Origin: an uncultured virus (IMG/VR IMGVR_UViG_3300042864_000556)
Taxonomy: Duplodnaviria; Heunggongvirae; Uroviricota; Caudoviricetes
Virus record (IMG/VR): IMGVR_UViG_3300042864_000556
DNA: 64,000 bases
Direction: 5' to 3' (one strand)
Position numbers and translations under genes: made by a program. Of the stretch, positions 1,968-19,525 are shown piece by piece. The notes beneath the pieces were generated by a model. That model had not been told where the DNA came from. It did not search any database and worked only from the letters and a program-made list of their open reading frames with translations. How positions within the stretch are numbered: position 1 is the first letter of the stretch; every line of letters begins with the position of its first letter.

Positions 1968-1999
1968 CAATTTGTAATATAGAATTAATTAATTATTTT

Positions 2000-2017
2000 T
2001 GTCCTAAATAATAGACA
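2000..2017. promoter_or_regulatory. 18-bp palindromic operator overlapping a TAnnTTTG promoter element
   Basis: TGTCCTAAATAATAGACA; TATTTTTG at 1994-2001; motif recurs at 33218, 33481, 42131, 58338, 60509, 62974. Confidence 0.6.
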
Positions 2018-2023
2018 CATATC

Positions 2024-2320
2024 ATGTTAGAAAAACTTTATAGACTGTTTCTCAATTCGTTTCAAACCACATTGGGATTGAACGGTGGAAGCAATGTTAC
2101 AATATCAAACACATCAGCCACAACGGGCAAATGGTGTGCGTTACAAGTAATTGCAGACGCTAACATATCTGCTATGACAATAGACGGTGGCAACGGTGCG
2201 GGCTTAACGGGTATTTCGTTAAGTGCGGGTACTATTATCTATGGTTATATTACTTCGGTAACATTAACTTCGGGTACAGTAAGAATGTACGGTGGTAACA
2301 ATATTAATTTACAGCCATAA
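2024..2320 (+). CDS. Small virion/tail-associated protein
   Basis: G/T/S-rich ORF coupled to next gene (TAATG). Confidence 0.5.
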   Translation: MLEKLYRLFLNSFQTTLGLNGGSNVTISNTSATTGKWCALQVIADANISAMTIDGGNGAGLTGISLSAGTIIYGYITSVTLTSGTVRMYGGNNINLQP

Positions 2321-3171
2321 TGATAGGGCTTGGGTTAGGCATAAATAAGTATCGTTTTGTAGGCGGTGGTGGTAGCAACCTTGACCCTGACGCACAAGCG
2401 TTTTTAACAGCAGCAGGAATAACTGACCCGACTACTATAACGGCTACTAACGATGCTTTTATTGCATTAAAAACCGCAGGTTATTATGCATCAGGATGGA
2501 ATATGTCGGGTTATACATCTACAATACAATGCTTTACTTTATACCCTAATCTTGGGGCAAGCGCAAGTGTGGCTAAATTTAATATGTGTAATCCTGCCGA
2601 TACTAATGCTGCTTATAGAAAAACATATTTTGGTGGCGTTACGTTTGATTCTTATGGTGAAGTAAGTAATGGAACTAACGGATATGCACAAACTCATTTA
2701 AACTTAGGTTCTGTTACAGACATTAATAGCGTATCAATGGGTTTTTACTCGTTTACCAATTCGGGTACGGGCGACCAATATGATATGGGAGTGTTTGATT
2801 CGAGTGCAGGAAATAGCCAAACAATGATAAGGGCTAGGACTGCTGATTTTATGTTTGCAGCGTTAAATCAAGATGACCCGCCCGCAGCACCAGTTAGTAC
2901 GGATTCAACAGGTTTCCATGCCGTAAGCAGAGTGAATGGAACGCAAGAAATCAAGAACATACGAGGTACTAATACGACCAATTCAAGAAACAGTATTGTT
3001 GAGCCTACACTTGAACAATATCTGATGTGTGTAAACTTTAACAACTTGCCATTTGGTTACAGCGTAAGAAAATACGGATTTCAGTTTCATGCAGCAGGTC
3101 AAACGGGTACTCAGTTGAATGTTATGGAACAAATTATCGAAGATTACATGATAGCATTAGGAAGGATATGA
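2320..3171 (+). CDS. Putative tail fibre/virion appendage protein
   Basis: MIGLGLG...GGGG N-terminus, DPDAQAFLTAAGIT motif, beta-rich body. Confidence 0.5.
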   Translation: MIGLGLGINKYRFVGGGGSNLDPDAQAFLTAAGITDPTTITATNDAFIALKTAGYYASGWNMSGYTSTIQCFTLYPNLGASASVAKFNMCNPADTNAAYRKTYFGGVTFDSYGEVSNGTNGYAQTHLNLGSVTDINSVSMGFYSFTNSGTGDQYDMGVFDSSAGNSQTMIRARTADFMFAALNQDDPPAAPVSTDSTGFHAVSRVNGTQEIKNIRGTNTTNSRNSIVEPTLEQYLMCVNFNNLPFGYSVRKYGFQFHAAGQTGTQLNVMEQIIEDYMIALGRI

Positions 3172-3371
3172 GTATAATGTATAAAATAACCAAACAACAA
3201 GCAAACGAATTGCGAAACCTTACATTTGATGATAGTAGCTATTACTATCCTATTCAAGATGTGAATAACGATTGGTTTATTTCTGAAACAGAAGTGAACA
3301 AATCAAATATTGCATGGGTTAAAGAATTGCAGCCGTCTAATTTTGAACCTAAAATAATTGAGTTACCATGA
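3168..3371 (+). CDS. Hypothetical protein (likely partner of upstream gene)
   Basis: ATGA overlap; PIQDVNNDWFISETE motif. Confidence 0.55.
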   Translation: MSIMYKITKQQANELRNLTFDDSSYYYPIQDVNNDWFISETEVNKSNIAWVKELQPSNFEPKIIELP

Positions 3372-3484
3372 AAGCACAAGCCAAAGCAAATAAAGTTAAT
3401 TTCGGCACTCGCAAGAAAGGTCGTGCGGTTAAAAGATACAACAAACATCAAAGTGTTAAACAATATAAAGGTCAAGGTAGATGA
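3368..3484 (+). CDS. Small basic peptide (38 aa, ends QYKGQGR)
   Basis: Hand-translated; ATGA overlaps at both ends; not in ORF track. Confidence 0.55.
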   Translation: MKAQAKANKVNFGTRKKGRAVKRYNKHQSVKQYKGQGR

Positions 3485-3864
3485 ATATCGGAGTAATAAA
3501 CGACATAACGGATTTAACAATCAAAATAGGCAGCGTTATTTTTGGTGGCATAGTATCGGCTTGGGGTGTAAACAAGTTATGGTTAAGTTCTATATATGTG
3601 AGCAAGAAAGAAATGAGCAAGGCAATACAAGATTCAATAGAACCATTTATAAAAACCAAAGACGAAATGCATTCATTTAAACAAGACTTTGAAGTGTTTA
3701 AAGTCAAATACGAAGGGGATAGAAACTTACAGCGTGAGCAATACGCATCCCAAAAAGAAATCACCAAAGAGATACTACATAAGGTAAATAACATTAGCAA
3801 TCTAAATATCCCACAGATGATGAAGCTAATGATTGAAGAACATGAAAACGCCAAATCAAAATGA
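3481..3864 (+). CDS. Membrane protein with coiled coil, lysis cluster
   Basis: N-terminal hydrophobic segment; upstream of amidase. Confidence 0.5.
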   Translation: MNIGVINDITDLTIKIGSVIFGGIVSAWGVNKLWLSSIYVSKKEMSKAIQDSIEPFIKTKDEMHSFKQDFEVFKVKYEGDRNLQREQYASQKEITKEILHKVNNISNLNIPQMMKLMIEEHENAKSK

Positions 3865-4028
3865 GAGATTGTGAACCATTTAGCGAATGTTGGTGCATAG
3901 AACATCCGAATGCGTGTGATAACGTAAACGATAACGTGCTACCCATTAATAATGGTTTATTGTTTTTGGTAGTTTTCGCATTGATATACGGAATAAAAAA
4001 ACTGTACAAACATGAAACATCTAATTGA
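3861..4028 (+). CDS. 55-aa Cys-rich peptide with C-terminal TM segment (PID-CTERM-like)
   Basis: Hand-translated MRDCEPFSECWC...LPINNGLLFLVVFALIYGIKK. Confidence 0.55.
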   Translation: MRDCEPFSECWCIEHPNACDNVNDNVLPINNGLLFLVVFALIYGIKKLYKHETSN

Positions 4029-4230
4029 AAACTACAAGAAGCCAACGCCACGAAAATGGCGAAAAATTGGCGACTATGCTTTGATACTTATTATAGTGTT
4101 AGAAGCACAACTAAACGCAATGCCTATCGTTAATGAGTGGGCTAAGTGGGGGATAGCAACTGCGCTAATCGCATTTAAGTTTTGGACTAACACACGGACT
4201 GACAAAAACATATACGAAGGAAAGTTATGA
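4012..4230 (+). CDS. Putative holin
   Basis: Basic N-terminus, two TM segments, overlaps amidase start. Confidence 0.55.
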   Translation: MKHLIENYKKPTPRKWRKIGDYALILIIVLEAQLNAMPIVNEWAKWGIATALIAFKFWTNTRTDKNIYEGKL

Positions 4231-4664
4231 GACAAATCAGATGGATAGTTGTACATTGCACGGGCGCAAATGCACACCAAACAACCGAAAGCATTAAGGC
4301 TTATTGGTTACATAAGTTAGGTTGGAAGTCTTACGGCTACCATATATTAATCGGGCATGATGGCAAGATTGAAAAGCTAACAGACTATTCTAAACCAACC
4401 AACGGGGTTGCAGGGTACAATAAATATTCTATCCATGTATGTTATAAGGGTGGTGAAAATGGCAAAGACACAAGAACACCCGCACAAAAAGATGCGCTAC
4501 TTAAAGTAGTTACCGAACTAAAAAAGCAGTTCCCTAAAGCAAACATATTAGGGCATAGAGATTTTAGTAAAGACTTGAATAACAACGGAATAATAGAACC
4601 AAAAGAGTTCATAAAATTTTGTCCATCATTTTCGGTACGGGCGGAATATGGACACATTAAATAA
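4227..4664 (+). CDS. Endolysin, N-acetylmuramoyl-L-alanine amidase (T7 lysozyme/Amidase_2-like)
   Basis: IVVHCT, GYH, SIHVCYKGG, DTRTPAQK, GHRDF, KFCPSF motifs. Confidence 0.9.
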   Translation: MRQIRWIVVHCTGANAHQTTESIKAYWLHKLGWKSYGYHILIGHDGKIEKLTDYSKPTNGVAGYNKYSIHVCYKGGENGKDTRTPAQKDALLKVVTELKKQFPKANILGHRDFSKDLNNNGIIEPKEFIKFCPSFSVRAEYGHIK

Positions 4665-4719
4665 AATTTAATTTGCGTTTCTAAAAATTACCTTTAAATT
4701 TGTAATACATTTTTCAATT

Positions 4720-4953
4720 ATGACTGACGAAAAAGAAGAAATAGCAGACGACATAGTTTACGAAGAACCCGAAAGACCGTCAGAATTAATTGCAGCGTCA
4801 TTAAACTCTTTAGTTGTGTGTGATTGTTACGATTACGGGATGGCAGATAGTGAAGAAAAAGCAATGATAGACAACATAAAGAGAATGGCTCTGATATTAG
4901 TGCATACATCTTTAAAAAATATATATGAAACAAACATCGAACAGGAACAGTAA
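4720..4953 (+). CDS. Hypothetical acidic protein
   Basis: ORF overlapping start of phosphoesterase. Confidence 0.5.
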   Translation: MTDEKEEIADDIVYEEPERPSELIAASLNSLVVCDCYDYGMADSEEKAMIDNIKRMALILVHTSLKNIYETNIEQEQ

Positions 4954-6376
4954 ACCACACCACGCATTAATTCGTGAAATGGTTTTGAAGTTTCCTAACA
5001 CCCCGAAGCAAACTTTGGCAAAGAAATTTGTAAAAGAAAACCCTAAGTTTTTATTGTCTGTTGAAGAAGTAAGAGATTACATAAGGACAATAACGGGGTC
5101 GCATGGCAGCATAAGTAGGGAGTTTAACGTAGATTTTAGGACTGAATTGGCTAAACTAAAAAAGGCTATGCCGAAGGGTGATACGGAAAGAGAAGAACCT
5201 TACCACATACCTAAAGCCAATAGGAACATACTTGTTATTGGCGACTTGCATATACCTTACCATAATGACGAAGCGATATTTGCTGCATTAGAATATGGTG
5301 CAGAGCAAAACGTAGATACTATTATAATCAACGGAGACTTATTGGACTTTGCGTTGATTTCAAGGCACGAGAAGGATTTAAGAAAGCGTAGTGTCGGATA
5401 TGAGATAGCAGCAGCTAAAATCTTCTTAGAAGGACTAAGAAATATGTTTCCTAAAGCGTTGATTATCAATAAGAACGGAAATCATTGCATGACGGGAGAC
5501 ACCGAAATATTAACCGAAAATGGGTTTGTAAAATTCACCGATTTAAAAGAGGGTGATATGGTTGCACAGTTTGATGAAAACAGAAACATATCATACAGTT
5601 TGCCTAATGCTATTATAAAAAGAATGTACGAAGGCGACATATATGACATTAGCAATAACTATACAAGGCAATTGGTTACTGACAAGCATAGGGTTTTGAT
5701 TGGCAATGAGTTTGTAGAGGCGAGAAATGTAAAGATAGGTGATGTAAAAAACATACCTACAAGCGGACAGCATGATGGAGTAGGTTTTAATTTAATAGAC
5801 AAGGATATGCAAGTAGCTAAAGACACGTCTTCTATTACAAAAATACCGTATAACGACATGGTTTATTGTGTAGAGATGCCTTTAGGAACTATCATAACAA
5901 GGTACGAGGGTAAAGTTGCCTTTACGGGCAACTGCGTGAGGTATCAGAAGTGGATAATGCAGAAAGCACCCGAACTATTAGACATTGAGGGAACGTCATT
6001 GCCCGAATTGTTAGGATTGAACCAATTAAACATAATCAACATAACCGACAAGAGGTATATCTATGCGGGCAAGATAGCTATATTTCATGGGCATGAAGTT
6101 GGTATGACAAGCGGTGGTGTAAACCCTGCAAGAACACTTAGATTAAAACTAAACAAGTCAGCTATAACTAACCATTTTCATAGGGAAACTAAAGACATGG
6201 GAAGGAATTTAGACGAGCAACCTTACTCATGTTATTCTAATGCGTGCCTTTGTGATTTGTATCCTGCGTATATGCCTATTAATCAATGGACACATGGGTT
6301 TATTCACTTGAAATTAGACAAGCACGGAAACTATAACGTGCAGCAGAAATCAATCATTGACGGAGTAATTTATTAG
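4925..6376 (+). CDS. Calcineurin-like metallophosphoesterase containing an intein
   Basis: GDLHIPY, NGDLLD, GNH, HGH and HFH motifs; GNH followed by an intein. Confidence 0.85.
   Translation: MKQTSNRNSKPHHALIREMVLKFPNTPKQTLAKKFVKENPKFLLSVEEVRDYIRTITGSHGSISREFNVDFRTELAKLKKAMPKGDTEREEPYHIPKANRNILVIGDLHIPYHNDEAIFAALEYGAEQNVDTIIINGDLLDFALISRHEKDLRKRSVGYEIAAAKIFLEGLRNMFPKALIINKNGNHCMTGDTEILTENGFVKFTDLKEGDMVAQFDENRNISYSLPNAIIKRMYEGDIYDISNNYTRQLVTDKHRVLIGNEFVEARNVKIGDVKNIPTSGQHDGVGFNLIDKDMQVAKDTSSITKIPYNDMVYCVEMPLGTIITRYEGKVAFTGNCVRYQKWIMQKAPELLDIEGTSLPELLGLNQLNIINITDKRYIYAGKIAIFHGHEVGMTSGGVNPARTLRLKLNKSAITNHFHRETKDMGRNLDEQPYSCYSNACLCDLYPAYMPINQWTHGFIHLKLDKHGNYNVQQKSIIDGVIY
5486..5932 (+). mobile_element. 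Mini-intein (149 aa, no endonuclease domain seen)
   Basis: CMTGDTEILT (block A), LVTDKHRV (TxxH), VYCVEMP, ends FTGN followed by Cys +1. Confidence 0.85.
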
Positions 6377-6378
6377 TC

Positions 6379-6642
6379 ATGCAAAAGATTAACAAACACA
6401 ACATAGCAGAACACTTAATCACCTATGAGTTAGAAATGATAGGTAAGGACTTTAGTGCCACCGAAGAAGAAGGGTGGTATAGCAAAAACAAGATAACCCA
6501 AGAACAGCATAACGAATTTGAAGCCTACGCAACCCGCCTTATTCAAAAAGTATATAGATGCTCTAAAGCAATAGCAAAAAAGGAATTTATGGCGTTTGAT
6601 TTGTGTTATGGGCTATCAGTGAAAGACAGCGAGGCAAACTAA
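6379..6642 (+). CDS. Hypothetical protein
   Basis: ORF in operon context. Confidence 0.55.
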   Translation: MQKINKHNIAEHLITYELEMIGKDFSATEEEGWYSKNKITQEQHNEFEAYATRLIQKVYRCSKAIAKKEFMAFDLCYGLSVKDSEAN

Positions 6643-6742
6643 TCAATTCAACTTTTAATTAAACAAACGGTTATAGTTGTGAAGATATGTTACTTTTATT
6701 CAGGGGTGTTTAAAAAGTCCTCGCTGTTTAATTTTTAAAGGC

Positions 6743-7081
6743 ATGAACAATAAAAAGATAATTATTATGAAACAAATAACAGCAAAAGACCTACTATCAC
6801 AAAACCACTTGCTAATCGAAGACGGCAAGACTTGTGAGGCGCACACGCATTTAGTAGTAAAACAAATGATTAGGTTCGCTAAACTACACGTTAAAGCTGC
6901 ATTGAAGAAAGCTAGTGAAAAAGCTGATTGGAATTGCATTTCTGAGGATAGTTATTTTGGAGATTTAAGAGATTATGATTTTTGTGAAAGGGATAATGAT
7001 GGAGATAAAACTCAGATACATAATATTATTGTTGACAAGGATTCAATTCTAAATGCTTACGATTTAAATAACATTAAATAA
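6743..7081 (+). CDS. Hypothetical phage protein
   Basis: FAKLHVKAALKKASEKA...DKDSILNAY pattern. Confidence 0.55.
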   Translation: MNNKKIIIMKQITAKDLLSQNHLLIEDGKTCEAHTHLVVKQMIRFAKLHVKAALKKASEKADWNCISEDSYFGDLRDYDFCERDNDGDKTQIHNIIVDKDSILNAYDLNNIK

Positions 7082-7109
7082 CCGAACAATTATTATATTT
7101 GTAAAAAAT

Positions 7110-7220
7110 AGTTAGGTGGCGGAATTAGACGCTAATGTGGTAAGGTGTATTGCCTTGAATCAATTCGATTAGGTTGCCTGCGAAGTTTACACCGTGCAAG
7201 TTTCAATCTTGCCCTAACTA
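7110..7220 (+). ncRNA. tRNA-like element with expanded central region
   Basis: AGTTAGG/CCTAACT acceptor stem, TGGCGGAATTAGACGC D-arm-like, GCAAGTTTCAATCTTGC T-arm-like; TATATTTG just upstream at 7094-7101. Confidence 0.55.
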
Positions 7221-7248
7221 TTTTAATTTAAAAGTTTATATTTGACAC

Positions 7249-7704
7249 ATGAAAATAATAATACCAATAATCCTACTATTAAGTAGTTGCTACTCGGCAA
7301 GGCAATGCAAGGAAAAGTTTTGCTCTAAAGACACCGTAAACGTAGAAGTAATCATCCACGACACCATTAAAATTGAAGGTGACAGCGTTAAGTTCGGGCT
7401 GCAAATAGATAGCCTAAACAGCTTAATTCAATCGCTTATATCAGAAGGCAAAGACACGACAATAACCTTAGTAGATGACAGCACAACCAAAGTTGATGTA
7501 GTTTACAATCCCAAAACAAGAAAGTTAAACTTCAAAGCTAAAAACAAAGAGTATCGGTATGTGTATTTTAACATCACAAAGAAAATAAAAGTGCCTACAA
7601 ATTGCCCGAAACCAACTATGTCAGAACTGTTTAAACAGTATTGGTATGTGTTGTTGATAGCTTTTTTATTAGGTTTATTTTGTTTTGTGTGGATTAGGAA
7701 GTAA
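7249..7704 (+). CDS. Lipoprotein with C-terminal TM helix, putative unimolecular spanin
   Basis: LLLSSC lipobox and C-terminal YWYVLLIAFLLGLFCFVW. Confidence 0.6.
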   Translation: MKIIIPIILLLSSCYSARQCKEKFCSKDTVNVEVIIHDTIKIEGDSVKFGLQIDSLNSLIQSLISEGKDTTITLVDDSTTKVDVVYNPKTRKLNFKAKNKEYRYVYFNITKKIKVPTNCPKPTMSELFKQYWYVLLIAFLLGLFCFVWIRK

Positions 7705-7750
7705 TATTGCATAGTGTTTAGTCATAATTCACTTATTGTTTAACAGCAGA

Positions 7751-7784
7751 AATAGCCTTCGTGTTTATCGAGGGCTATTTTATT
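7751..7784 (+). terminator. Intrinsic terminator
   Basis: AATAGCCTTCG...CGAGGGCTATT hairpin followed by T-rich tract. Confidence 0.7.
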
Positions 7785-7826
7785 CGACTAATTTTCAGCA
7801 CGTTACATAGAAGTAAAAAATAATAC

Positions 7827-7868
7827 TTGCAAATAAATATCTAACAGTTATATATTTGTACCCGTTAA
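7827..7868 (+). promoter_or_regulatory. Bacteroidota-type promoter
   Basis: TTGC...TATATTTGTACCCGTTAA; near-identical copy at 14908-14948. Confidence 0.7.
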
Positions 7869-7880
7869 TCAATAATAATT

Positions 7881-8504
7881 ATGACAGACAAAAAAGACCA
7901 AATCGCAAAAGCAATCCTTGCCGTTATGAACGATGTCAAGGGTGTAGACAAAACCATGACAGTTGGGACAGGGCAATCATCTTATAAAGGTGTACCCGAC
8001 CAAGAAGTTAAAAAAATCATAGGCTCGTCAATGGCTAAAAACGGCTTATGTATTGTGCCTATTGAAGTAAGGACACAAACAAGAATTGACCGTTGGGAAG
8101 AAGCAAGCGGTAATTACACCAAGCAAAAGCAATCTGTATTTACAGAAGTAGAAACCAAGTATCTATTGTTGCACGAAAGCGGGCAAAGTATAGAACTAAG
8201 CGGTTATGGGCATGGTGTTGACAGCCAAGACAAAGGGGCGGGCAAGGCTACTACCTACGCATTGAAGTACACATTGTTATATACTTTCCTTGTACCAACG
8301 GGCAAGATAGACGATGCGGACAATCACCACAGCGATGAAACACCAACACCCGTAGCTAAAAAGTTAGTGCCTTTTACTCAAGCTATATTCGACAAGATGA
8401 AAGCAGCAATCGAAGCTGGCAATTCAGAGTTGGTAAAGTCAAACTTACACTTATACGATATAAACGACAGTTTCAAGCAACAACTTAACGACCTATTAAA
8501 ATAA
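7881..8504 (+). CDS. ERF-family ssDNA-annealing protein
   Basis: LLHESGQS...DKGAGKATTYALKY...DDAD motif. Confidence 0.8.
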   Translation: MTDKKDQIAKAILAVMNDVKGVDKTMTVGTGQSSYKGVPDQEVKKIIGSSMAKNGLCIVPIEVRTQTRIDRWEEASGNYTKQKQSVFTEVETKYLLLHESGQSIELSGYGHGVDSQDKGAGKATTYALKYTLLYTFLVPTGKIDDADNHHSDETPTPVAKKLVPFTQAIFDKMKAAIEAGNSELVKSNLHLYDINDSFKQQLNDLLK

Positions 8505-8968
8505 TGGAAACAACAATAAGCACAATGTCAATATTCCCCTCAAGCAAAGACGAGGTGGCAGCGTTTAGTAATAAAATGATAAGCGAATTAGAATCGGGTA
8601 ACGCAAATCCTTTAGACGTATTAAGGTTTCAAAAGTGTTTTGAGAAAGTGTTTGAGAATGTAAAGCCTACTTTAATGGATATGGCACGCACCGAAGCAGA
8701 AAAGTACGGGGCTAAAAAGTTTGATTACAAAGGGTTGAAAATGGAACTAGCGGAGGTTGGAACTAAATACGATTTTAGTGGCTGTAATGACACGGAATGG
8801 AACGAATTAGACCAACAAGCAAAAGATATAGCAGAAAAGAAAAAACACCGTGAAACGTTATTAAAATCACTAACAGAAGCTATTGATGTAATTGACAAGT
8901 ATGGCGAAGCTAAATCTATTGTTCCACCCGTTAAAAGTTCAACAAGTTCAATAAAGGTAACAGTATGA
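8504..8968 (+). CDS. Hypothetical protein, recombination module
   Basis: Coupled to ERF gene. Confidence 0.6.
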   Translation: METTISTMSIFPSSKDEVAAFSNKMISELESGNANPLDVLRFQKCFEKVFENVKPTLMDMARTEAEKYGAKKFDYKGLKMELAEVGTKYDFSGCNDTEWNELDQQAKDIAEKKKHRETLLKSLTEAIDVIDKYGEAKSIVPPVKSSTSSIKVTV

Positions 8969-9327
8969 GCAGAAACATGATATTGTCGGTGTGTTTAGAA
9001 AGCTACCGACCACGCAAAGACAAGTCGTTTACTTTAACCTTTAGCACTCAGGAGTTGGCAACAGATAGGGTATTAGACGTGGCTTACCTACATAATAAGA
9101 TGGGCGTGCTATACTTTGCGGATAAGGAAGTAATGGATGCAGAGGAACTAACCATGTTGGATTCTACCGAATTAGACATAGGTGTTAAGAGTCCAAGCCA
9201 AAGACTAAGGAATGTGCTTTATGTTTTACATACGCAATTAGGTGGTAATTCAGACAACTTTAAAGACTTTTACCAACAACAGATAGAAATGATTATCAAC
9301 AAAATAAAGGCTAAACTAGAGGACTAA
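8965..9327 (+). CDS. Hypothetical protein
   Basis: KSPSQRLRNVLY motif; coupled ORF. Confidence 0.6.
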   Translation: MSRNMILSVCLESYRPRKDKSFTLTFSTQELATDRVLDVAYLHNKMGVLYFADKEVMDAEELTMLDSTELDIGVKSPSQRLRNVLYVLHTQLGGNSDNFKDFYQQQIEMIINKIKAKLED

Positions 9328-9614
9328 TGAAACTAAACAAGCGAGATAACGACTTTTTGAACATAGCACGAAAGGCGGGTATAACAAACGAGCAAGCGTT
9401 TGAGTTTATTGAGCAACTAAAAAAGCACACTTATAAAAACCATTCGTTGTTTGTAAGGGGGTTTGGGACTATCGAGGTGGTAAAGCACAAGCCAAGAACA
9501 GCATTGCAATTTACGGGCGAACCAAGAATGATACCATCATTTAAGCGTGTCAAGATAAAGATGAACTTAGATTACCGAAACAAACTCAACAATATAAAGA
9601 AACATAGCACATAA
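9327..9614 (+). CDS. HU/IHF-like DNA-binding protein
   Basis: VRGFGTIEVVKHKPRT...TGEPRMIP; stop codon is the TAA of the first attC-like site. Confidence 0.7.
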   Translation: MKLNKRDNDFLNIARKAGITNEQAFEFIEQLKKHTYKNHSLFVRGFGTIEVVKHKPRTALQFTGEPRMIPSFKRVKIKMNLDYRNKLNNIKKHST

Positions 9615-9679
9615 CGTTTTGCAGCTACACGCTGTGAGCGTTGGAATGAGGGAGGAAAAATAGCGTGTAGGTGATGTTA
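9612..9679 (-). repeat. attC-like site A1
   Basis: TAACGTTTTGCAGCTACACGCT...AGCGTGTAGGTGATGTTA. Confidence 0.75.
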
Positions 9680-9726
9680 TCGGCTGCCCTTCTTTCGGAA
9701 TTATCAAATTAAAAACAATAAACAAA

Positions 9727-9948
9727 ATGAAACAAACCGCAGTAAATTATTTGGTTAATGAGTTAAAAAAATCAAAACATTTTCAAAGATTAATAAATGA
9801 AGTTAGCGAAAACAAAACAATCGTTGAAGACATTATTTTACAAGCAAAAGAATTAGAGCAAGAGCAAATAATGGAGGCACATTATGCACCTAAATACGGG
9901 TGCTTTTCAGAAAAATACTATGATGAAACTTTCGGTGATATTTCTTAG
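9727..9948 (+). CDS. Cassette-borne hypothetical protein (MKQTAV family)
   Basis: Between A1 and A2; similar to 16314..16580. Confidence 0.7.
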   Translation: MKQTAVNYLVNELKKSKHFQRLINEVSENKTIVEDIILQAKELEQEQIMEAHYAPKYGCFSEKYYDETFGDIS

Positions 9949-9957
9949 GGTTGCCGA

Positions 9958-10044
9958 TAACGTTTTGCGGCTTGGCGAAGGCTGCCTAACGGATGCTCAA
10001 TTTTCGAACGAAACTTTATGGCAGCTTTTGCCAAACCGCTGTTA
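9958..10044 (-). repeat. attC-like site A2
   Basis: TAACGTTTTGCGGCTTGGCGAAGGCTGCC...GGCAGCTTTTGCCAAACCGCTGTTA. Confidence 0.85.
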
Positions 10045-10085
10045 CCTGCTGGGCGGTTTATCAGTAGGAACTTAAATAAAAAACG

Positions 10086-10331
10086 ATGATTAAAGTAGCA
10101 AAAAAAGATTTAAAGAACATTGAAGTTGAAGTCAATAAAAACGGTGGCTTTACTGTATGGGTTCTTGAAAAGAAAAAAGTAAATGGCAAGATGATTACTT
10201 TCAAACATTGGATTATTGACGGGAGCTGCATTAAGGATGATGGTGAAATCAAACTGGGTTTACATGATATTTGGAAAATCAATGCAAAGTTTGACGAAGT
10301 AGAAAATGCTCTTTATGTAACGAGGTCGTAG
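10086..10331 (+). CDS. Cassette-borne hypothetical protein
   Basis: Fills the cassette between A2 and A3. Confidence 0.7.
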   Translation: MIKVAKKDLKNIEVEVNKNGGFTVWVLEKKKVNGKMITFKHWIIDGSCIKDDGEIKLGLHDIWKINAKFDEVENALYVTRS

Positions 10332-10340
10332 CCTTGCAGC

Positions 10341-10430
10341 TAACGGTTTTCGTATATACGAGGTACGTCAAACGATAAACTTCAAATTATAAACAAATGC
10401 TTGTATGTGTATCTTGTATATACGCTGTTA
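10341..10430 (-). repeat. attC-like site A3
   Basis: TAACGGTTTTCGTATATACGAGGTAC...GTATCTTGTATATACGCTGTTA. Confidence 0.8.
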
Positions 10431-10449
10431 GCAGATAGTAAAAATTATT

Positions 10450-10611
10450 ATGGAAGATATAAAGTTAAAATACTTAGACCCATTAACTGACAAGCAGAAA
10501 GAAGCAATTTTTGGTGTGAAAATAGAACATTTGACACCAAAGGAAATACTTGAAAAATATGGCGATATATTGACCAAAGAGCAAAAAATTGCGTTAGGCA
10601 TCACGGAATAA
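10450..10611 (+). CDS. Cassette-borne 53-aa hypothetical protein
   Basis: Hand-translated MEDIKLKYLDPLTDKQKE...ALGITE. Confidence 0.6.
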   Translation: MEDIKLKYLDPLTDKQKEAIFGVKIEHLTPKEILEKYGDILTKEQKIALGITE

Positions 10612-10620
10612 TTTTTATTT

Positions 10621-10666
10621 CGGATCGCAGCTATGCGCTCGTTTTAATGGCGCATAGGTGCTGTTA
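10621..10666 (-). repeat. Degenerate attC-like site A4 (TAAC end missing)
   Basis: GCAGCTATGCGC...GCGCATAGGTGCTGTTA retained; left TAAC absent. Confidence 0.65.
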
Positions 10667-10710
10667 GCAGATGGCACGGTTTAATTAGTAAAACTTAATT
10701 AGAAATACAA

Positions 10711-11016
10711 ATGGAAAACTCGAAACAAAGTGAAGCATTCTTTGAAATGTTCACTCAAGTAAGGAAAGAAATTGCAAACGAAAACGGATACCACTTAGCA
10801 ACTGCAATAATGAAAACTTTTGACAGGTGGAATATGTGGCAAACTGGTATGCCTGAATTTGATGGTAAATATCTTGCGTTAATTGAACATGAACAAGAAT
10901 GCAAGAATGTGTGGAAGTATCAAGAAATAGTCGATTGCGTCTTTAATAATTGGGTATTAAAAGACAAACAGAAAGTAGTAGGATGGAAAAAATTGTCAAA
11001 CGAAGACGGTCAGTAG
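10711..11016 (+). CDS. Cassette-borne hypothetical protein
   Basis: WQTGMPEFDGKYL...VVGWK; cassette ends GTTAGCAGATGGCAC / GTGCTTTCTGCTAAC. Confidence 0.7.
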   Translation: MENSKQSEAFFEMFTQVRKEIANENGYHLATAIMKTFDRWNMWQTGMPEFDGKYLALIEHEQECKNVWKYQEIVDCVFNNWVLKDKQKVVGWKKLSNEDGQ

Positions 11017-11026
11017 TGCTTTCTGC

Positions 11027-11097
11027 TAACTGCTACGCTATACGAACCTTGATTTATAATTCATTGAATGACAGTGCAAAAAGTATTGATTATAATT
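11027..11097 (-). other. attI-like terminal site of array A
   Basis: TAAC-TGCTACGCTATACGAAC-N35-GTATTGAT; aligns with 17316-17387 and 19136-19200. Confidence 0.7.
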
Positions 11098-11206
11098 TAA
11101 TAACAATGGAACTAAACCCAAAGACCAAAAAGATATTGTACGTTACATTTCTGACTACATTTCTAATCTACTCAGCTATATTATTTTTAACCTTAATTTA
11201 TAAACT

Positions 11207-11401
11207 ATGTTACAATTAACAATCGAAGAATACCAACAGATATTAGCGCAAAGAACAGCGTTAAAATACTACATACGCAAAGACTTTGACAAGGCTAAAG
11301 ATAGGGATTACTTAGAAGCGATTATCGAATCAGCGATTGAGCTAGGTATGCCACAAGATTTCATTAACGAAATGAAAAACGATTTAAGTGTAAAGCCATG
11401 A
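11207..11401 (+). CDS. Hypothetical protein
   Basis: ORF in operon context. Confidence 0.5.
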   Translation: MLQLTIEEYQQILAQRTALKYYIRKDFDKAKDRDYLEAIIESAIELGMPQDFINEMKNDLSVKP

Positions 11402-11577
11402 TGTACTGCCCTAACTGCGACAGAAACTACTCACAATCAGATTGCGAGGTAGAAGATTACCCAACATCACCGTTGGATGCTGACAAAGAGGTTTCTCATT
11501 TAGAATGCCCCGATTGCGGTGGTGATGTAGAAAGTGAAGTGGATGATAGCGACTATTGGGAAACTGAGTTTTTGTAA
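11398..11577 (+). CDS. Small Zn-finger protein (CPNC...CPDC)
   Basis: Hand-translated 59 aa; ATGA overlap. Confidence 0.55.
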   Translation: MMYCPNCDRNYSQSDCEVEDYPTSPLDADKEVSHLECPDCGGDVESEVDDSDYWETEFL

Positions 11578-11715
11578 ATCAAGGAAATAGTCTTATAATT
11601 GTACCGCAGTTCACTATGAAAGAATTAAAAACATTCCCGAAACATCATTGCCTATCGTGCGTTCTTGCACAAGTGGACTGCCTTTGATGGAGTAGGGTAT
11701 TTTATTTTAAAACAA

Positions 11716-11982
11716 ATGGAAAATGTAAAAGAATTATCTACTGAGTTTATCGGGAGAGGACAAGTTAAAGGGTTTAGGTTTACCCTTAAAAACAAAACTG
11801 AAAAAGGGTACATATACGAAGTCAGTACAGGCTATTCTACACACTTTGAAGTATTCAAGAAACGAATCAACAAACAATTTAATTGCATTAGTTACCCAAG
11901 TGACAAGGCGTTTGGTTTTTGGGCGTGGAGTTGTTCGGATTATGAAGGCGCGTTGTATAGACTGGAGGGCTTTGAGATATGA
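11716..11982 (+). CDS. Hypothetical protein
   Basis: Likely start MENVKEL; YPSDKAFGFWAWS motif. Confidence 0.6.
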   Translation: MENVKELSTEFIGRGQVKGFRFTLKNKTEKGYIYEVSTGYSTHFEVFKKRINKQFNCISYPSDKAFGFWAWSCSDYEGALYRLEGFEI

Positions 11983-12587
11983 GAGAATCGTTTTTAATCT
12001 ACAAGTCTTTTTACGAGCCTATAAAAGACCTTTCAAATGATGATTTAGGGCAATTGTTTAGGGCAATATTTGAATATCAATTATTAGACAAAGAACCCGC
12101 AAACACAAATAGAATATTCATGGCTTTCCAATTTTTCAAAAATCAATTTAGGCTTGATAATGATAAATATGAAAAGGTGGTTAATAAAAACAGAATCAAT
12201 GGTTTATCAGGTGGCAGACCTAAAAGCAAACAAAAGCCAAATAACCCACCGCTTTTTTTAGAACCCAAAAAAGCCGATAATGATAATGGTAATGGTAATG
12301 GTAATGTAAATGATAAAGAATTTAATTTAAATAACGATTTAGAAATGTTTGAAGATTGGTTAGAGACGTTCAACATGATGTTTAATAGAAATCACAGACC
12401 GATAAAGAAAGTAATAGCATCATACAATGCAAGGATAAAAGAAGGGTATGAACAACAAGAGTTGCTTGACGCATTAGAAAATGTCAAAAACAACCCATAT
12501 CACATTGAGACTAAATTCACATACATAACCCCTGAGTTTATGACAAGGGCAGATAAGATAGAAAAATATAAAACACACAACATATGA
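11979..12587 (+). CDS. Replication initiator/replisome organiser (DUF6291-like N-terminus)
   Basis: ESFLIY...LGQLFRAIFEYQ...NGLSGGRP, DNDNGNGN linker, TPEFMTR C-terminus; upstream of helicase. Confidence 0.75.
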   Translation: MRESFLIYKSFYEPIKDLSNDDLGQLFRAIFEYQLLDKEPANTNRIFMAFQFFKNQFRLDNDKYEKVVNKNRINGLSGGRPKSKQKPNNPPLFLEPKKADNDNGNGNGNVNDKEFNLNNDLEMFEDWLETFNMMFNRNHRPIKKVIASYNARIKEGYEQQELLDALENVKNNPYHIETKFTYITPEFMTRADKIEKYKTHNI

Positions 12588-14650
12588 GCATAGTTAGTAT
12601 ATATGAAAATAATAAAGACACCACAAGTCAATACACAATACCCGTTTTAGATGCACTATATCGCATTAGAGACGGCAAAAGTAGAAAAAGGATAGAAGAC
12701 CTAAGACAGATGGATAAAGTGTCTTATAATCAAAATAAAGGACTATTGCCATCAATTACCTTTAGTGGTACGTTTTCTAAGCGAAATGACAAGGATATGC
12801 TAACCCATAGTGGTTTTCTATGTATAGACTTTGATAGTGTTGATAATGTTGAGGTAAAAAAAGAGCAGCTATCCAAAATACCCTACATATACGCAGCGTG
12901 GATTAGCCCAAGCGGTGAGGGGGTAAAAGCATTGGTTAGAGTTCCACCAATTATTGAAAACCATAGAAAGCACTATCAAGCACTTTTGGAAGCGCATCCC
13001 GATATGGATAAAAGCTGTATAAACGAAAGTAGGTTTTGCTATGAAAGTTACGACCCGAACATTTACATAAACGAAAAGTCGGAAATTTATACTAAGACTT
13101 ACGAAAAGCGTGAGGAAAGGTTTGTTAAGAAAGTTGAAATATCGGAGTATTCTACAATATTTGAGAACCTTTTGAAATGGCAATCTAAAAACTCAAGGTA
13201 TTTTGAAAGCGGGAATCGTAACACGTTTGTTTTTGTGCTTGCAGGTGCGTTATGTAGGTACGGAGTCCCAATGTCAGAAGCGCAATACCTAATATCAAAT
13301 CAAATTCATGTAAACAATGACTTTAGTGAATCTGAAATGATTAAAGCTATTCAGCAAGGATATAAAACAAATAGCGGTAGGTATGCAACTGAGAAGTTTG
13401 AAACAGAGGAGATGTATGTTCAAACAATGGAGTTTAAAAGGGATATAGAATACTTTGAAACAGAGTTTGACTATAAGGATATAATTTTTGGCGATTTTGA
13501 CGGAGTTATAGACGTGTATGACAATGGTTATGGTTCGGCAGAAACTACCTACTATACCGAACTTGACAAACACTTTAAATGGAAAAGAGGGGATTGGACT
13601 TTAACTTCGGGCGCGGGTAATCACGGAAAGACCAGTGTTATGTTACAGCTAATGCTTATTAAGTCAATTAACGATGGTGTTAAGTGGGCGTTGTTTGTGC
13701 CTGAAAATATGCCGTCAAAATTATTCTACACAGAATTAACCGAGATGTTGGTTGGTTGTGACATAACCCCATCAAACCCACATCGCCCCAATAAAGACAG
13801 TATAGAACAAATAGCAGATTTTTTATCGGAACATTTTATTGTAGTTCATCCAAAGGAATTAGCACCAACACCACAGTATATAAAATCAAAGTTCTTAGGA
13901 CTAATAATGCACAAAGGGGTGAGTGGTATATTTATAGACCCATTTAATAGGTTAATGAATGATTATACATCCACATCGGGCAGAGACGACAAGTATTTAG
14001 AAGCGTTCTTAGCAGATATGAGTAATTTTGTAAAACACCATGACTTATATTCGTGCATTATAGCACACCCTACAAAACTAAGGAAAGTAGATGGAGAAAA
14101 AGACTATCCTTGTCCTGATGTTTTTAATATTGCGGGAGGTGCAATGTGGAATAATATGATGGATAATATATTGTTTTGGCATAGACCGTATAAGATTTCA
14201 GAGCCTAATAATCCATTATGTATATTCAAGTCTGCGAAGATTAGGTGGAAGAAAATAGTAGGGCATGAAGGAGAGATAGAGTTTATGTATGATTTTAAAC
14301 GTAGGAGATATTATTTAGATAATTTTTGTCCTCTAGATACAAATCCATTTAACTTTGTAGAAGGTGGTGTTATGTTTGAGGATGTTGTAAAAGACACAAC
14401 GGGCAAGCGGATAGAAACCAATCCATATAGGATGACAGATTCCGACCACAAGCAGATGTTAGAACACACATTTTATGATGTAAAACCGTTAAGCATGAAA
14501 GATTTTGCAGCAAGGCTTAAACAATCACTACAAAGGTATGGATACCCAATAAGTAAAAGCGCAGAGTTTAAGCAATATTACATACAAAACAACTATTTAA
14601 CTATTAATAACGGTATGTATTTTATCGAAACACCAAACAACGAAAATTAA
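12584..14650 (+). CDS. Primase-helicase (VirE-N/BT4734-like + PriCT + SF4 helicase)
   Basis: LPSITFSGTF, CIDFD, SPSGEGVK, GNRN; Walker A GAGNHGKT, FIDPFN, IIAHP. Confidence 0.85.
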   Translation: MSIVSIYENNKDTTSQYTIPVLDALYRIRDGKSRKRIEDLRQMDKVSYNQNKGLLPSITFSGTFSKRNDKDMLTHSGFLCIDFDSVDNVEVKKEQLSKIPYIYAAWISPSGEGVKALVRVPPIIENHRKHYQALLEAHPDMDKSCINESRFCYESYDPNIYINEKSEIYTKTYEKREERFVKKVEISEYSTIFENLLKWQSKNSRYFESGNRNTFVFVLAGALCRYGVPMSEAQYLISNQIHVNNDFSESEMIKAIQQGYKTNSGRYATEKFETEEMYVQTMEFKRDIEYFETEFDYKDIIFGDFDGVIDVYDNGYGSAETTYYTELDKHFKWKRGDWTLTSGAGNHGKTSVMLQLMLIKSINDGVKWALFVPENMPSKLFYTELTEMLVGCDITPSNPHRPNKDSIEQIADFLSEHFIVVHPKELAPTPQYIKSKFLGLIMHKGVSGIFIDPFNRLMNDYTSTSGRDDKYLEAFLADMSNFVKHHDLYSCIIAHPTKLRKVDGEKDYPCPDVFNIAGGAMWNNMMDNILFWHRPYKISEPNNPLCIFKSAKIRWKKIVGHEGEIEFMYDFKRRRYYLDNFCPLDTNPFNFVEGGVMFEDVVKDTTGKRIETNPYRMTDSDHKQMLEHTFYDVKPLSMKDFAARLKQSLQRYGYPISKSAEFKQYYIQNNYLTINNGMYFIETPNNEN

Positions 14651-14656
14651 AATAAT

Positions 14657-14878
14657 ATGAAACAAAAAACCAAATCACAGCCATACATAGGCAACATCAA
14701 AATTGGCAATCAATTTAGGATAAAAAGCGACAACAATATCATCGAGGTCGTTGACGTAAACAACAACATTGTCTGTAAATACATTGTCAGCGACACAAAA
14801 AAAGACCTACCCGTTACTTTTGGCGGTGACGACTTGGATAAAAAAGTAAAGTTTGGCTACTTTATTAAAATTAAATAG
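14657..14878 (+). CDS. Hypothetical protein
   Basis: ORF in operon context. Confidence 0.5.
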   Translation: MKQKTKSQPYIGNIKIGNQFRIKSDNNIIEVVDVNNNIVCKYIVSDTKKDLPVTFGGDDLDKKVKFGYFIKIK

Positions 14879-14907
14879 CCTAATTATCAGCAAGTTAAAA
14901 ATAACTC

Positions 14908-14948
14908 TTGCATATAAAATACTAACCACTATATATTTGTACCGTTAA
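14908..14948 (+). promoter_or_regulatory. Bacteroidota-type promoter upstream of the operon containing array B
   Basis: TTGCA...TATATTTGTACCGTTAA. Confidence 0.7.
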
Positions 14949-14959
14949 ACAATTAAAGC

Positions 14960-15187
14960 ATGACTAATTTATTCCAAAGATTGAAGCCCGAAGTGCGGGA
15001 AAAAGTTAAACTCTATTTAGGCGAAGGTTCGTTCCATTGGGTGCGTTTTAAAGAAGTGTTATCATCTAATACTAGCTACCTACCCATACCTTTTCAACTT
15101 ATAAAATGGATAGCAGACGCAACGGGCGAGGGTGATATGTTAGCTATTGAATTAATGTTTACTCAAGATTCACCATTTAATACTTAA
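14960..15187 (+). CDS. Hypothetical protein
   Basis: First ORF after promoter. Confidence 0.55.
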   Translation: MTNLFQRLKPEVREKVKLYLGEGSFHWVRFKEVLSSNTSYLPIPFQLIKWIADATGEGDMLAIELMFTQDSPFNT

Positions 15188-15363
15188 TAACATGAACACA
15201 AACAACTTAAAGCAATGCAGCGACATTCTTCGCTCGGTTTACCCAAAGCCACAAATCAGAAAAACAGTTGACCCCAACGAAGGGTTATCAGCAATGGATA
15301 GGCAGATATTATTTTATACTTCGCTTATGCGCACCAAGTTACTGTTAGCTAAAAACACAAGAC

Positions 15364-15738
15364 ATGACAGTTAGTTTGATACCATATTACTCAGTAGGTA
15401 GGGCGGATATATCCCGAATCAACGAAATAAAAGTTACCGCTACGTTGGATGATATATTAGATGCGGTGTGTTCGCATACGGGTCAAAGCATAGAATTTGT
15501 GGGTAGAAAAACCCGCAAGAGAGAGATTGCCCAAGCAAGGTATTTGTACTTTCATTTTTCGTGGATATACACCAATATCTCGCTAAGTAAAATAGGCGAA
15601 AAGGTAGGCGGATACGACCATACAACTGTCATACATGGGCGTGACCTTATTAACGACTTAGCCTTATATAACAAGTCAATAGCTAACGATGTTCAATTAA
15701 TTCATAACAAACTAAATAAATTTATATTATGCAGGTGA
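15364..15738 (+). CDS. DnaA C-terminal-like HTH protein
   Basis: TRKREIAQAR...SLSKIG...GGYDHTTVIHG. Confidence 0.8.
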   Translation: MTVSLIPYYSVGRADISRINEIKVTATLDDILDAVCSHTGQSIEFVGRKTRKREIAQARYLYFHFSWIYTNISLSKIGEKVGGYDHTTVIHGRDLINDLALYNKSIANDVQLIHNKLNKFILCR

Positions 15739-15920
15739 TACATAACGAAGACACTCGTAATTTAGACGGGGTAGTAGATTTTAGGGCTGTAATAAGCGCA
15801 AGTGGTTCGGCTGTTGAGATAACACACGAACACGGCACGGTTGAAGTTTTGCAGTACCATAACTCTGACGATTGCTTACAAGGTTTTAGAGTGATTAGCG
15901 ATAGGCTAAAAGGTAAATAA
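15729..15920 (+). CDS. Hypothetical protein; stop codon is the TAA of attC B1
   Basis: ORF ends GGTAAATAA-C. Confidence 0.55.
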   Translation: MQVIHNEDTRNLDGVVDFRAVISASGSAVEITHEHGTVEVLQYHNSDDCLQGFRVISDRLKGK

Positions 15921-15995
15921 CGGTTTCGGGCTTGGCGAAGTGGCTTTTGTGCGTTGGCTTGTGTGTCGGAAAGCCATTTTGCCAAACCCGTGTTA
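15918..15995 (-). repeat. attC-like site B1
   Basis: TAACGGTTTCGGGCTTGGCGAAGTGGCTTT...AAAGCCATTTTGCCAAACCCGTGTTA. Confidence 0.85.
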
Positions 15996-16068
15996 TATGA
16001 AGTGCCGACTTATTTACGATAAAGCTCAATTGAAACAATAAACAGAAAAACAAAAAGAAAAAAAAGCG

Positions 16069-16329
16069 ATGGAAAAAACAGCTATACAAACATTAATTGA
16101 AGACCTTAAAAAAGAAGGTTATCAAATGGACAATTTAGATGCTCATTATTATTTAGAATTAGAAAAAGTACAGAAATGGAATAATTTTTTAGAAAACAAC
16201 TTCCCTTTAAATGATTGGGATATTGTTGTTTTTAGCAACAAAAAAAACAAATATTACATTGAATATACGGATAGTGAATTTTACCAAAGATGTATTAATA
16301 GAAACTATATAAAATGGATGAAATTATGA
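16069..16329 (+). CDS. Cassette-borne hypothetical protein
   Basis: Within cassette B. Confidence 0.6.
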   Translation: MEKTAIQTLIEDLKKEGYQMDNLDAHYYLELEKVQKWNNFLENNFPLNDWDIVVFSNKKNKYYIEYTDSEFYQRCINRNYIKWMKL

Positions 16330-16580
16330 AACAACAAACAGCAGTAGAATGGTTAATTGAGCAACTAACTCCTTCAATATCTTTGCAACAAAAACATATT
16401 GATGAATTAAAAGAGAAAGCTAAAGAAATGGAGAAAGGTCAAATAGTCGATGCAGGCGTTTTTTCATTTCAACTAAATGATAAAACGCCTTACGGAATGG
16501 AATATCTAAGCAAACTTGATAATGCAATTTCAAATGCTGTGTATTATTATAATGAAACTTATAACAAACAAAATAAATAA
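16314..16580 (+). CDS. Cassette-borne hypothetical protein (MKQTAV family)
   Basis: TAVEWL...AKEMEK.QI...YYNETY. Confidence 0.65.
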   Translation: MDEIMKQQTAVEWLIEQLTPSISLQQKHIDELKEKAKEMEKGQIVDAGVFSFQLNDKTPYGMEYLSKLDNAISNAVYYYNETYNKQNK

Positions 16581-16851
16581 CATGGAAACAAGTAAAGAAT
16601 TAAAAACACCAACACAACACATGATGATATGGGTGTTGCAAAACTTTGAAAAAGAGTTAGAAAACGATATTGATAAAGACAAGTCGCTTGATGAAATATT
16701 TGACGAAACACTAACTTTTGAGCAACGAAAAATGAAAGAGTTTTTTATAGCTGGAATTATGCTTGGCTCTGGAGCTTATCAGTTAAAGAAAGAGTTTGAT
16801 ATAGATGTAGAATTTAAAAAGTTTTACTCAAAATTATTCCCCGAAGAATAA
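16516..16851 (+). CDS. Cassette-borne hypothetical protein (true start probably METSK, about 16582)
   Basis: Within cassette B. Confidence 0.55.
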   Translation: MIMQFQMLCIIIMKLITNKINNMETSKELKTPTQHMMIWVLQNFEKELENDIDKDKSLDEIFDETLTFEQRKMKEFFIAGIMLGSGAYQLKKEFDIDVEFKKFYSKLFPEE

Positions 16852-16877
16852 AATTACATAAATAAAAAATATCAAAA

Positions 16878-17240
16878 ATGAAAGCAAGCGAATTAAGAAT
16901 TGGAAATTTGGTTTATGTTAGTGATAATGAAACTAATATAATATTTAAACAAATTACTCCAATAAACATACATAATTTAATGCACTTAACAGGATGGGAT
17001 AAATCTCCTATCGATATTGAATTTGAACCCATACCATTAACAGAAGAATGGTTATTAAAATTGGCATTTAAAAAAGATGGAACAAACGCTATTTTTTGGA
17101 CTTTAAACAATGTTGATGTTTGGCAATTAAATGGGGTATATGCGAATGATTTAGATTTACCTATTCAATACATTCATCAATTACAAAACTTATACTTTGC
17201 ATTAACTGGTAAAGAATTAGACTATGAAGAAGAATTTTAA
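16878..17240 (+). CDS. Cassette-borne phage protein
   Basis: ELRIGNLV...PIPLTEEWL...HQLQNLYFALTGKEL pattern. Confidence 0.7.
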   Translation: MKASELRIGNLVYVSDNETNIIFKQITPINIHNLMHLTGWDKSPIDIEFEPIPLTEEWLLKLAFKKDGTNAIFWTLNNVDVWQLNGVYANDLDLPIQYIHQLQNLYFALTGKELDYEEEF

Positions 17241-17315
17241 AAGTGCGGTGGCTTTTTTCTTTTTGTTTTTCCTTCACGGATTTTCAATTGGAAACGGTCA
17301 GCAAGGCATTTCATA

Positions 17316-17387
17316 TAACTAATCGCTATGCGAACATTGAATCGTAAGTCATTGTAACATAGGCGTAAATGTATTGATGTGTAATTT
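17316..17387 (-). other. attI-like terminal site of array B
   Basis: TAAC-TAATCGCTATGCGAAC-N35-GTATTGAT. Confidence 0.7.
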
Positions 17388-17507
17388 GCACTAAAAGTAT
17401 ATAGCATATCATTCATTAACCAAAATTACCTTAATAAGGTATGAAATATCATACACGCTTAGTAATAATAGTTTTGTAATCAGCAACACTATCACTATAT
17501 TTGAATA

Positions 17508-18197: not shown

Positions 18198-18308
18198 AAA
18201 GGGCAATTCAAGTGCATCTTCACACTTACAATGCTTTCAAATATATAAACAATACGTTTACACCTATGGCTATTAGTAGCCTTATAATACCGTGTAATCT
18301 TGCTTTAG

Positions 18309-18879: not shown

Positions 18880-18881
18880 AG

Positions 18882-19163: not shown

Positions 19164-19200
19164 GTTGTTATTGTTTTGTTGTTCGCATATAAAGAAGTTA
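19136..19200 (+). other. attI-like terminal site of array C
   Basis: ATCAATAC-N36-GTTCGCATATAAAGAA-GTTA. Confidence 0.7.
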
Positions 19201-19517: not shown

Positions 19518-19525
19518 TCGGCAAC

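Follow-up and report, generated by a model that had tools for sequence, protein, structure and literature searches.

The stretch analysed (the window, 64,000 nucleotides) is bases 1–64,000 of a viral record that is 72,652 bp long and is listed with linear topology; freshwater and lake metagenomes are public datasets that contain sequence of this phage. A divergent gene of the HU/IHF family (95 aa, PF00216) lies at 9327–9614 on the plus strand, last in a run of overlapping genes that begins with the gene for an ERF single-stranded DNA-annealing protein; by ORF and Pfam analysis, the ERF gene and two genes overlapping in series (7881–9327, plus strand) are its resident operon. The match to PF00216 had an E value of 7e-9, and its score, 36.2 bits, clears the cut-off of 22.4. 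Canonical HU (L348) has an arm-tip RNP motif with the DNA-kinking proline, and the phage protein lacks it. No solved structure matched it at E ≤ 0.01, and a search with the protein gave one relative at 97% as its sole match. Ahead of two gene runs there is a 65-base repeat in two copies (7811–7875 and 14892–14956; 75% identical), and it contains a TATATTTG element resembling the Bacteroidota -7 promoter box.

The TAA stop codon of the HU gene (9612–9614) coincides with the TAA of the TAAC box at which an attC-like hairpin begins (TAAC...GTTA; 9612–9679, plus strand), so the exact abutment of gene and array reported in the first-pass annotation is correct to the base. This hairpin is the outermost of a cassette array, array A. 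Its plus strand folds with −10.6 kcal/mol (z −2.96), which none of 200 shuffles equalled, and the fold of 9608–9683 gives −10.6 on the plus strand vs −6.6 on the minus strand. In other contigs it begins at the identical base behind different upstream DNA. What moves as a unit, with the cut at the TAAC box, is a folding hairpin together with the gene that follows it. The hairpin is therefore assigned to the next cassette, which it opens and which runs to 9957, and not to HU.

Array A continues on the plus strand with gene A1 (9727–9948; 73 aa, no family), which lies between complementary cassette ends (9676–9961), a second attC-like hairpin found by scan and folding (9958–10044), gene A2 (10086–10331; 81 aa), a third hairpin found by scan (10341–10430) and gene A3 (10450–10611; 53 aa). 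Next is a damaged hairpin (10612–10666) that has lost its TAAC box and kept the inner stem and GTTA box, a loss that would merge cassettes A3 and A4 into a single unit. Gene A4 (10711–11016; 101 aa) is in the cassette 10663–11030. At the end opposite to HU the array is closed by an attI-like half-site, site A (11027–11047, plus strand: TAAC, 8 bases, TATACGAAC), which is non-folding and of the chromosomal type described below.

Two further arrays are present. Array B (15918–17315, plus strand) was identified by scan and folding and has one hairpin (15918–15995) and one cassette holding four ORFs; it is followed by the non-folding half-site B (17316–17335, plus strand: TAAC, 7 bases, TATGCGAAC). 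Array C is on the minus strand (19201–25888; Pfam and hairpin scan) and is a long row of hairpin-plus-gene cassettes that includes two DNA methyltransferases, with its non-folding half-site C at 19181–19200 on the same strand (again TAAC, 7 bases, TATGCGAAC). Thus a half-site of the form TAAC-N7/8-TATRCGAAC terminates each of the three arrays, at 11027, 17316 and 19200. Over the whole genome, 14 TAAC...GTTA hairpins reach a score of 16 or more; 20 shuffles gave 0.7 on average. The bases 3′ of a GTTA box are complementary to those 5′ of the next TAAC box, marking the cassette ends. By eye, the TAAC side is 3–4 bases longer in most hairpins. The ends of the array B cassette (15992–17319) are about 91–100% identical to cassette ends of many other phage loci, but its interior differs: this phage has four ORFs there, and in L064 the start is followed by a methyltransferase-like gene. 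The cassette resembles a shell that can be reused for different contents.

These features are close to those of integrons, the sedentary chromosomal ones especially. The hairpins have the inverted core boxes, imperfect stem and one-strand folding preference of attC sites, the cassettes are discrete units cut at the core box with complementary ends, and the docking site, like attI, does not fold; in chromosomes such a site lies beside a tyrosine recombinase, with copies in a divergent enzyme/cassette layout. With at least two attC-like sites and no integron integrase nearby, the arrays also fit the definition of a CALIN. The differences are that an integron has in cis an IntI with its characteristic insertion, whereas the phage has no recombinase and the candidate enzyme in trans is without the insertion; that an attI site adjoins the integrase gene, a layout seen in relatives and chromosomes but not in the phage; and that cassette genes read away from attI, as most chromosomal cassette genes here do, while those of the phage point towards the attI-like site.

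Whole cassettes are shared with other phages. A cassette in L073 has 93.6% identity over 534 bp with the one at 21168–20646, and that at 24037–23218 is 77% identical over 821 bp, box to box, to one in L058, with L016 also matching (76–77%). In each case identity ends at the boxes or within a few bases of them and the neighbours differ. L058 and L016 are rated 100% complete and are without PF00589, yet share a cassette with this phage. In 1.33 Mb of chromosomal loci no closely shared cassette gene was found, the best being 38% (methyltransferases) against up to 94% for phages. Cassette exchange between phage and host, which the first-pass annotation had suggested, finds no support in the chromosomal cargo; the sharing seen is with other phages.

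The first-pass annotation had recognised no tyrosine recombinase in the window, and this now extends to the whole 72,652-bp record and to serine recombinases. The integrase HMM search it had proposed gave no match to PF00589 at E ≤ 10 in the record and matches in 14/14 control genomes; PF00239, PF13495 and PF07508 (serine recombinase and integrase N-terminal families) had no match at E ≤ 1. A profile built from four array-linked phage recombinases found nothing in the record. With a 62-sequence recombinase profile run over six frames with stops read as X, the best E value was 0.54, compared with 1e-20 to 1e-35 at three control loci, and this search also found no recombinase remnant. No recombinase was named by Pfam on 95 + 11 ORFs or by PHROGs on 29, most small ORFs having no Pfam family, and an HxxR...Y scan gave five matches, none in a recombinase-like ORF. 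Nor was an enzyme found behind the attI-like sites at 11027, 17316 and 19200. A decayed recombinase suspected by eye behind site B was unsupported by protein and DNA profiles.

CheckV puts the completeness of the record at 56%, an estimate that is misleading. The record is nearly whole, because the two ends of the contig both lie inside a single crAss-type muzzle tail gene, whose C-terminal part is at 3–1967 (plus strand) and whose N-terminal part is at 71536–72652. In two full-length muzzle homologues, residues 1–364 align with 71536–72651 and residues 871–1516 with 6–1964, and a second assembly, L394, supplies 141 further in-frame muzzle codons (homologue residues 729–870). The unseen part of the genome is thus about 1.1 kb, within the muzzle gene, and the record is about 98% complete. 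Direct joining of the contig ends was ruled out, as about 505 muzzle homologue residues are absent between them. Four relatives with a 100% completeness rating are 68–78 kb. The idea that the recombinase is elsewhere in the genome is therefore excluded, save for this 1.1 kb of a structural gene. PF00589 was likewise found in none of 13 muzzle-sharing relatives, including five near-complete ones; five of the 13 were examined whole.

The gene content comprises crAss-type muzzle and ring proteins, terminase, portal, ERF, primase-helicase and NinG, of which the muzzle and ring tail proteins, portal and terminase are features of crAss-like phages. Together with the places where the sites recur, this content suggests a Bacteroidota host. 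Searches with single proteins found no relatives. A 2,970-aa protein (44466–53378) has no above-threshold Pfam match. The DFDxD-type motif of crAss virion RNA polymerases, sought as D[FYL]DxD in this ORF alone, is missing from it. Over 19.6 kb, all 14 differences between L394 and the record fall in a 450-base segment of the muzzle gene (527–971), which may be, judging from the alignment, a local variable or recombined patch.

As the phage lacks the enzyme, its possible sources are of interest, and sites of the same kind were found in Bacteroidota chromosomes. Searching these chromosomes with the phage hairpins, as had been proposed from the first reading, gave matches in 8 of 401 genomes at 71–77% identity, with two candidates scored per genome and prophage and chromosome counted together. 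Close recombinase homologues are present in 122 of 361 sampled genomes (71/201, 29/80 and 22/80) drawn from the phylum of a Chryseobacterium genome, and their catalytic residues are invariant. The homologues fall into a long and a short form; the candidate is the short one, which lacks the IntI insertion and has about 43 residues fewer than IntI4. Upstream of it are a half-site and cassettes, mostly in the divergent layout of an integron: the half-site is about 90–180 bases before the intact recombinase, the cassettes are on its other side, and their hairpins are built like those of the phage. The mobile unit, the docking sites and this linkage of enzyme to site in chromosomes are shown by the sequences. 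Recombinase trees were made by quick methods and served for clade sorting only. In three chromosomal arrays (L335, L337 and L343), repeated adjacent hairpin pairs surround a very short empty cassette.

A half-site motif, YAAC-N11/12-YGMAY, occurs upstream of 21 of 33 short chromosomal recombinases but of only 2 of 59 viral ones, and it is absent ahead of all 22 long chromosomal ones. The main phage motif is upstream of 1/33 short chromosomal recombinases vs 36/59 viral ones; duplicates and loci with fewer than 230 upstream bases are omitted from these counts. Sites A, B and C all fit the chromosomal motif, against a background after YAAC of 30/1,656, and site C also fits the main phage motif. 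As the motif had been written after inspection of the three sites and the first chromosomal loci, it was examined again in held-out genomes, where 6 of 55 loci were dropped and 19 of the 49 homologues analysed were of the short form. It was found at 8/19 short forms, 0/17 control windows and 1/30 long forms, and the phage motif at 0/19. The rate is below that of the first set (42% vs 64%), the loci are related by descent, and the long form again shows no tie to the motif (0/22; held-out 1/30). Among orphan phage docking sites elsewhere, 3/30 have the strict motif and 16/30 a relaxed form defined post hoc.

The spacing and 9-base box of site A are matched exactly ahead of the recombinase in three genomes (G085, G626 and G628). 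Orphan copies of this type of docking site are also present, seven in G141, three in G631 and two in G627, and no close recombinase was found there. In one Bacteroidota clade (G141, G626–G631 and G085; L372–L392) there are up to seven docking-type sites per chromosome, most without an adjoining recombinase; orphan docking sites are therefore not confined to phages. Other searches with the docking-site pattern were set aside: in viral contigs it gave four matches, none real and all without arrays; a short form in whole genomes was at chance level; and within one order it was present in 17 of 254 genomes, a reversed control matching at least as often, so that only a cluster of 21 matches in eight related genomes was meaningful.

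Since the docking sites of the phage match those that stand before this chromosomal Xer-like recombinase, it is likely that the phage borrows the host's enzyme; on balance, the arrays were probably loaded by the short Xer-like tyrosine recombinase that a Bacteroidota host encodes in its chromosome, and the HU-like gene is likely uninvolved. Borrowing from the host, as suggested in the first-pass annotation, is thus the likeliest reading, chromosomes sharing the hairpins, the motif and an intact enzyme; it falls short of proof, a phage clade also sharing the motif. A point against it is that the enzyme is present in only a part of the Bacteroidota (short form 19/49 among the held-out homologues). 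During infection the host enzyme would, by analogy with integrons, pair a folded single-stranded hairpin with the docking site. A new cassette would be added at the docking site and older ones pushed towards the HU end, and cassettes whose genes run with the phage's own operons would be kept. The action in trans, its chemistry and the host are inferred.

The recombinase might alternatively be supplied by a co-infecting phage or prophage with the same platform, instead of by a host chromosomal locus. One hairpin arm of the phage is present in 127 viral loci, in four of which the array ends just before a 265–298-aa Xer-like recombinase, and in many loci a phage-borne recombinase starts about 45–55 bases behind such a half-site. 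Four phage homologues are below the integron-integrase cut-off (TIGR02249), the first scoring 168 against 265. A small clade of phage recombinases (L169, L171, L173 and L176) has a docking site similar to that of this phage, the resemblance of L176 to site A reaching as far as its start codon, and the cargo, as described, is common to phages and not to chromosomes. PF00589 is present in 6 of 42 hairpin-bearing phage records, the longest distinct ones among the first 80 of the 127 loci, and in three of the 24 that are at least 90% complete, leaving 21/24 without a recombinase, a point in favour of borrowing. The strict motif at 2/59 viral recombinase loci, against a different motif at 36/59, argues against a helper, and co-infection is presumably rarer than an encounter with the host's own enzyme. 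A helper phage is an unlikely source.

It is also quite unlikely that the arrays are relics with no further site-specific movement, having entered by homologous or illegitimate recombination or having lost their own recombinase by deletion. Several features would fit such a history. Array A has a damaged hairpin, and behind its docking site there is a start codon, roughly as far away as the beginning of the recombinase is in L176. The phage encodes ERF and NinG, and illegitimate or off-target homologous recombination is the route proposed for phage CALINs in the part of that study available to us (PMC9892861). The genotype is also static: L394 is identical to the record over 972–19,599, and contigs of four runs, a possible source of L394, show the same arrangement with no precise cassette loss in array A. 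Against this, the phage still has three undamaged docking sites and its cassette ends remain complementary. The cassette with 93.6% identity is flanked by different neighbours and ends exactly at the boxes, and the profile searches gave no recombinase remnant. Genes that span the junctions are also polymorphic in the population: the unrelated 63-aa gene at 15729–15920 (plus strand), whose stop codon is on the outer TAAC box of array B, has three C-terminal forms among 14 close variants in its cluster, and the junction there is therefore polymorphic. Assembly joints in the four runs (46–84% of words) had sides of 20–49 letters at cassette sites, probably from other genomes, and were not used.

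The borrowed host enzyme thus remains the preferred reading, and the place of the HU gene can be considered in its light. The first-pass annotation had raised a cofactor role for the protein as speculation. In such a role it would act as an architectural factor beside the array and bend DNA for the borrowed recombinase. HU and IHF proteins assist some tyrosine recombinases, such as the lambda integrase, and the exact adjacency to array A would be in keeping with such a role. The passages on IHF in the integron literature seen here concern promoter regulation only, IHF weakly activating the promoters of class 1 integrons (PMC8876359). The role is nevertheless highly improbable and is unsupported by the comparisons. 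HU adjoins the oldest end of the array, some 1.4 kb away from the docking site; arrays B and C have no HU; and the arm-tip RNP motif is missing. Overlap of a stop codon with the TAA of a TAAC box is common, being found at 64 of 304 hairpins in related loci and also at array B, where the 63-aa gene is an internal control for the adjacency. HU and arrays are moreover unlinked in relatives. HU was found in four of 50 array-bearing records (one below cut-off), none of the four having a hairpin within 1.5 kb, in a search that does find the HU gene here. Of the five muzzle-sharing relatives examined whole, the nearest to this phage, G689, lacks HU but carries an array of five cassettes together with a half-site like those here, and G701 has HU and no array. 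Four weak PF00216 matches in 1,249–1,391-aa frames of relatives were treated as noise. According to Yutin et al. (2021; PMC7886860, seen in part), the core gene set of crAss-like phages includes IHF-like genes, for which a role in packaging has been proposed. The present gene likewise belongs to the HU/IHF family and shares its genome with crAss-type muzzle and ring proteins, but theirs lies in the structural block whereas this one closes the ERF operon and has a divergent arm tip.

A simpler origin for the junction is suggested by the last codons of the gene. The 14 bases before the stop codon (9598–9611, plus strand) resemble the 3′ end of a cassette (5.8 bits), a score that none of 459 other TAAC sites matched and that exceeds those of 36% of 94 true cassette ends. 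They are likely, from their sequence, to be the remnant of a deleted cassette; no cassette start matching them was found within 5 kb upstream. In the HU cluster of seven members the C-terminus is variable, and four of the seven (92 aa) end three residues earlier, without these codons. The simplest reading is that the HU frame became fused onto the leftover cassette end and, meeting its first TAA in the TAAC box, would stop there. As stop/site overlaps are common, the last codons are cassette-like and HU and arrays are unlinked in relatives, the position is read as incidental: the HU-like gene is likely to be a bystander at the far end of array A, and its adjacency is in itself ordinary. The flank of array B has no such cassette-end score, and insertion at a secondary site may account for its junction. 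Docking site and array may conceivably have arrived together as one large cassette, a history that predicts an empty site at the HU stop codon; no empty allele was found, and the flank of array A resembles a cassette end instead.

Finally, a recombinase of the phage's own, in the unseen gap or of an unrecognised fold, is barely conceivable: the record lacks about 1.1 kb and the majority of small ORFs match no family, but one collinear structural gene flanks the gap on both sides, the muzzle-sharing relatives (0/13; 0/5 near-complete) have no PF00589, and a known type of enzyme already fits the sites.

Integron surveys have found almost no complete integrons in Bacteroidetes; in the passage available, IntegronFinder 2.0 lists a single case, that of Salinibacter ruber M1 (PMC9024848). 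For the attC clusters of phages, the explanation given has been passive capture. Qi et al. (2023) described 17 CALINs in virulent phages, one of them in Polaribacter phage P12002L, and IntI1 supplied from outside recombined five of six phage attC sites tested (PMC9892861, seen in part). The arrays described here share with those CALINs their clusters of attC-like sites, small cassettes, lack of an integrase and methyltransferase cargo. They differ in having an attI-like site per array, towards which the genes run, although the 17 may include this type, and also in the matching enzyme: the one that relatives and chromosomes encode is short and Xer-like and lacks the insertion of IntI. IntI is also reported to insert cassettes at short GWT genome sites, attG (bioRxiv 10.1101/2022.09.11.507474), and attI-derived sites, delta-attI, can travel inside cassettes (PMC12901181). 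Together these are a known route to orphan arrays that could explain the junction of array B on a stop codon; in the portions of the two reports available, they were shown for IntI1–3 of proteobacteria and not for the enzyme here, and three docking sites in one phage are not described. In literature mostly outside subscription journals, no description of a Bacteroidota Xer-like cassette system was found, the closest being integrase-less phage attC clusters.

If the arrays are docking platforms served by the host enzyme, phages would be using a gene-capture machine of their hosts to trade anti-restriction and accessory genes. A broader proposal, to which we would give even chances, is that Bacteroidota phages captured the docking site of a host integron-like system and maintain it in multiple copies within their operons. 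The Xer-like recombinase of the host, besides stocking the chromosome with cassettes, would then supply the phage during infection with methyltransferases and other accessory genes, and unrelated phages would share a recombinase-free, host-powered platform for gene capture. The match of the sites to a specific clade of chromosomal recombinases makes borrowing testable, and the docking-site motif may help in host prediction. Similar short recombinases also occur in Pacearchaeota-type archaeal assemblies (L236, L240 and L246), two of which have a TAAC site resembling a cassette end 91 bases upstream.
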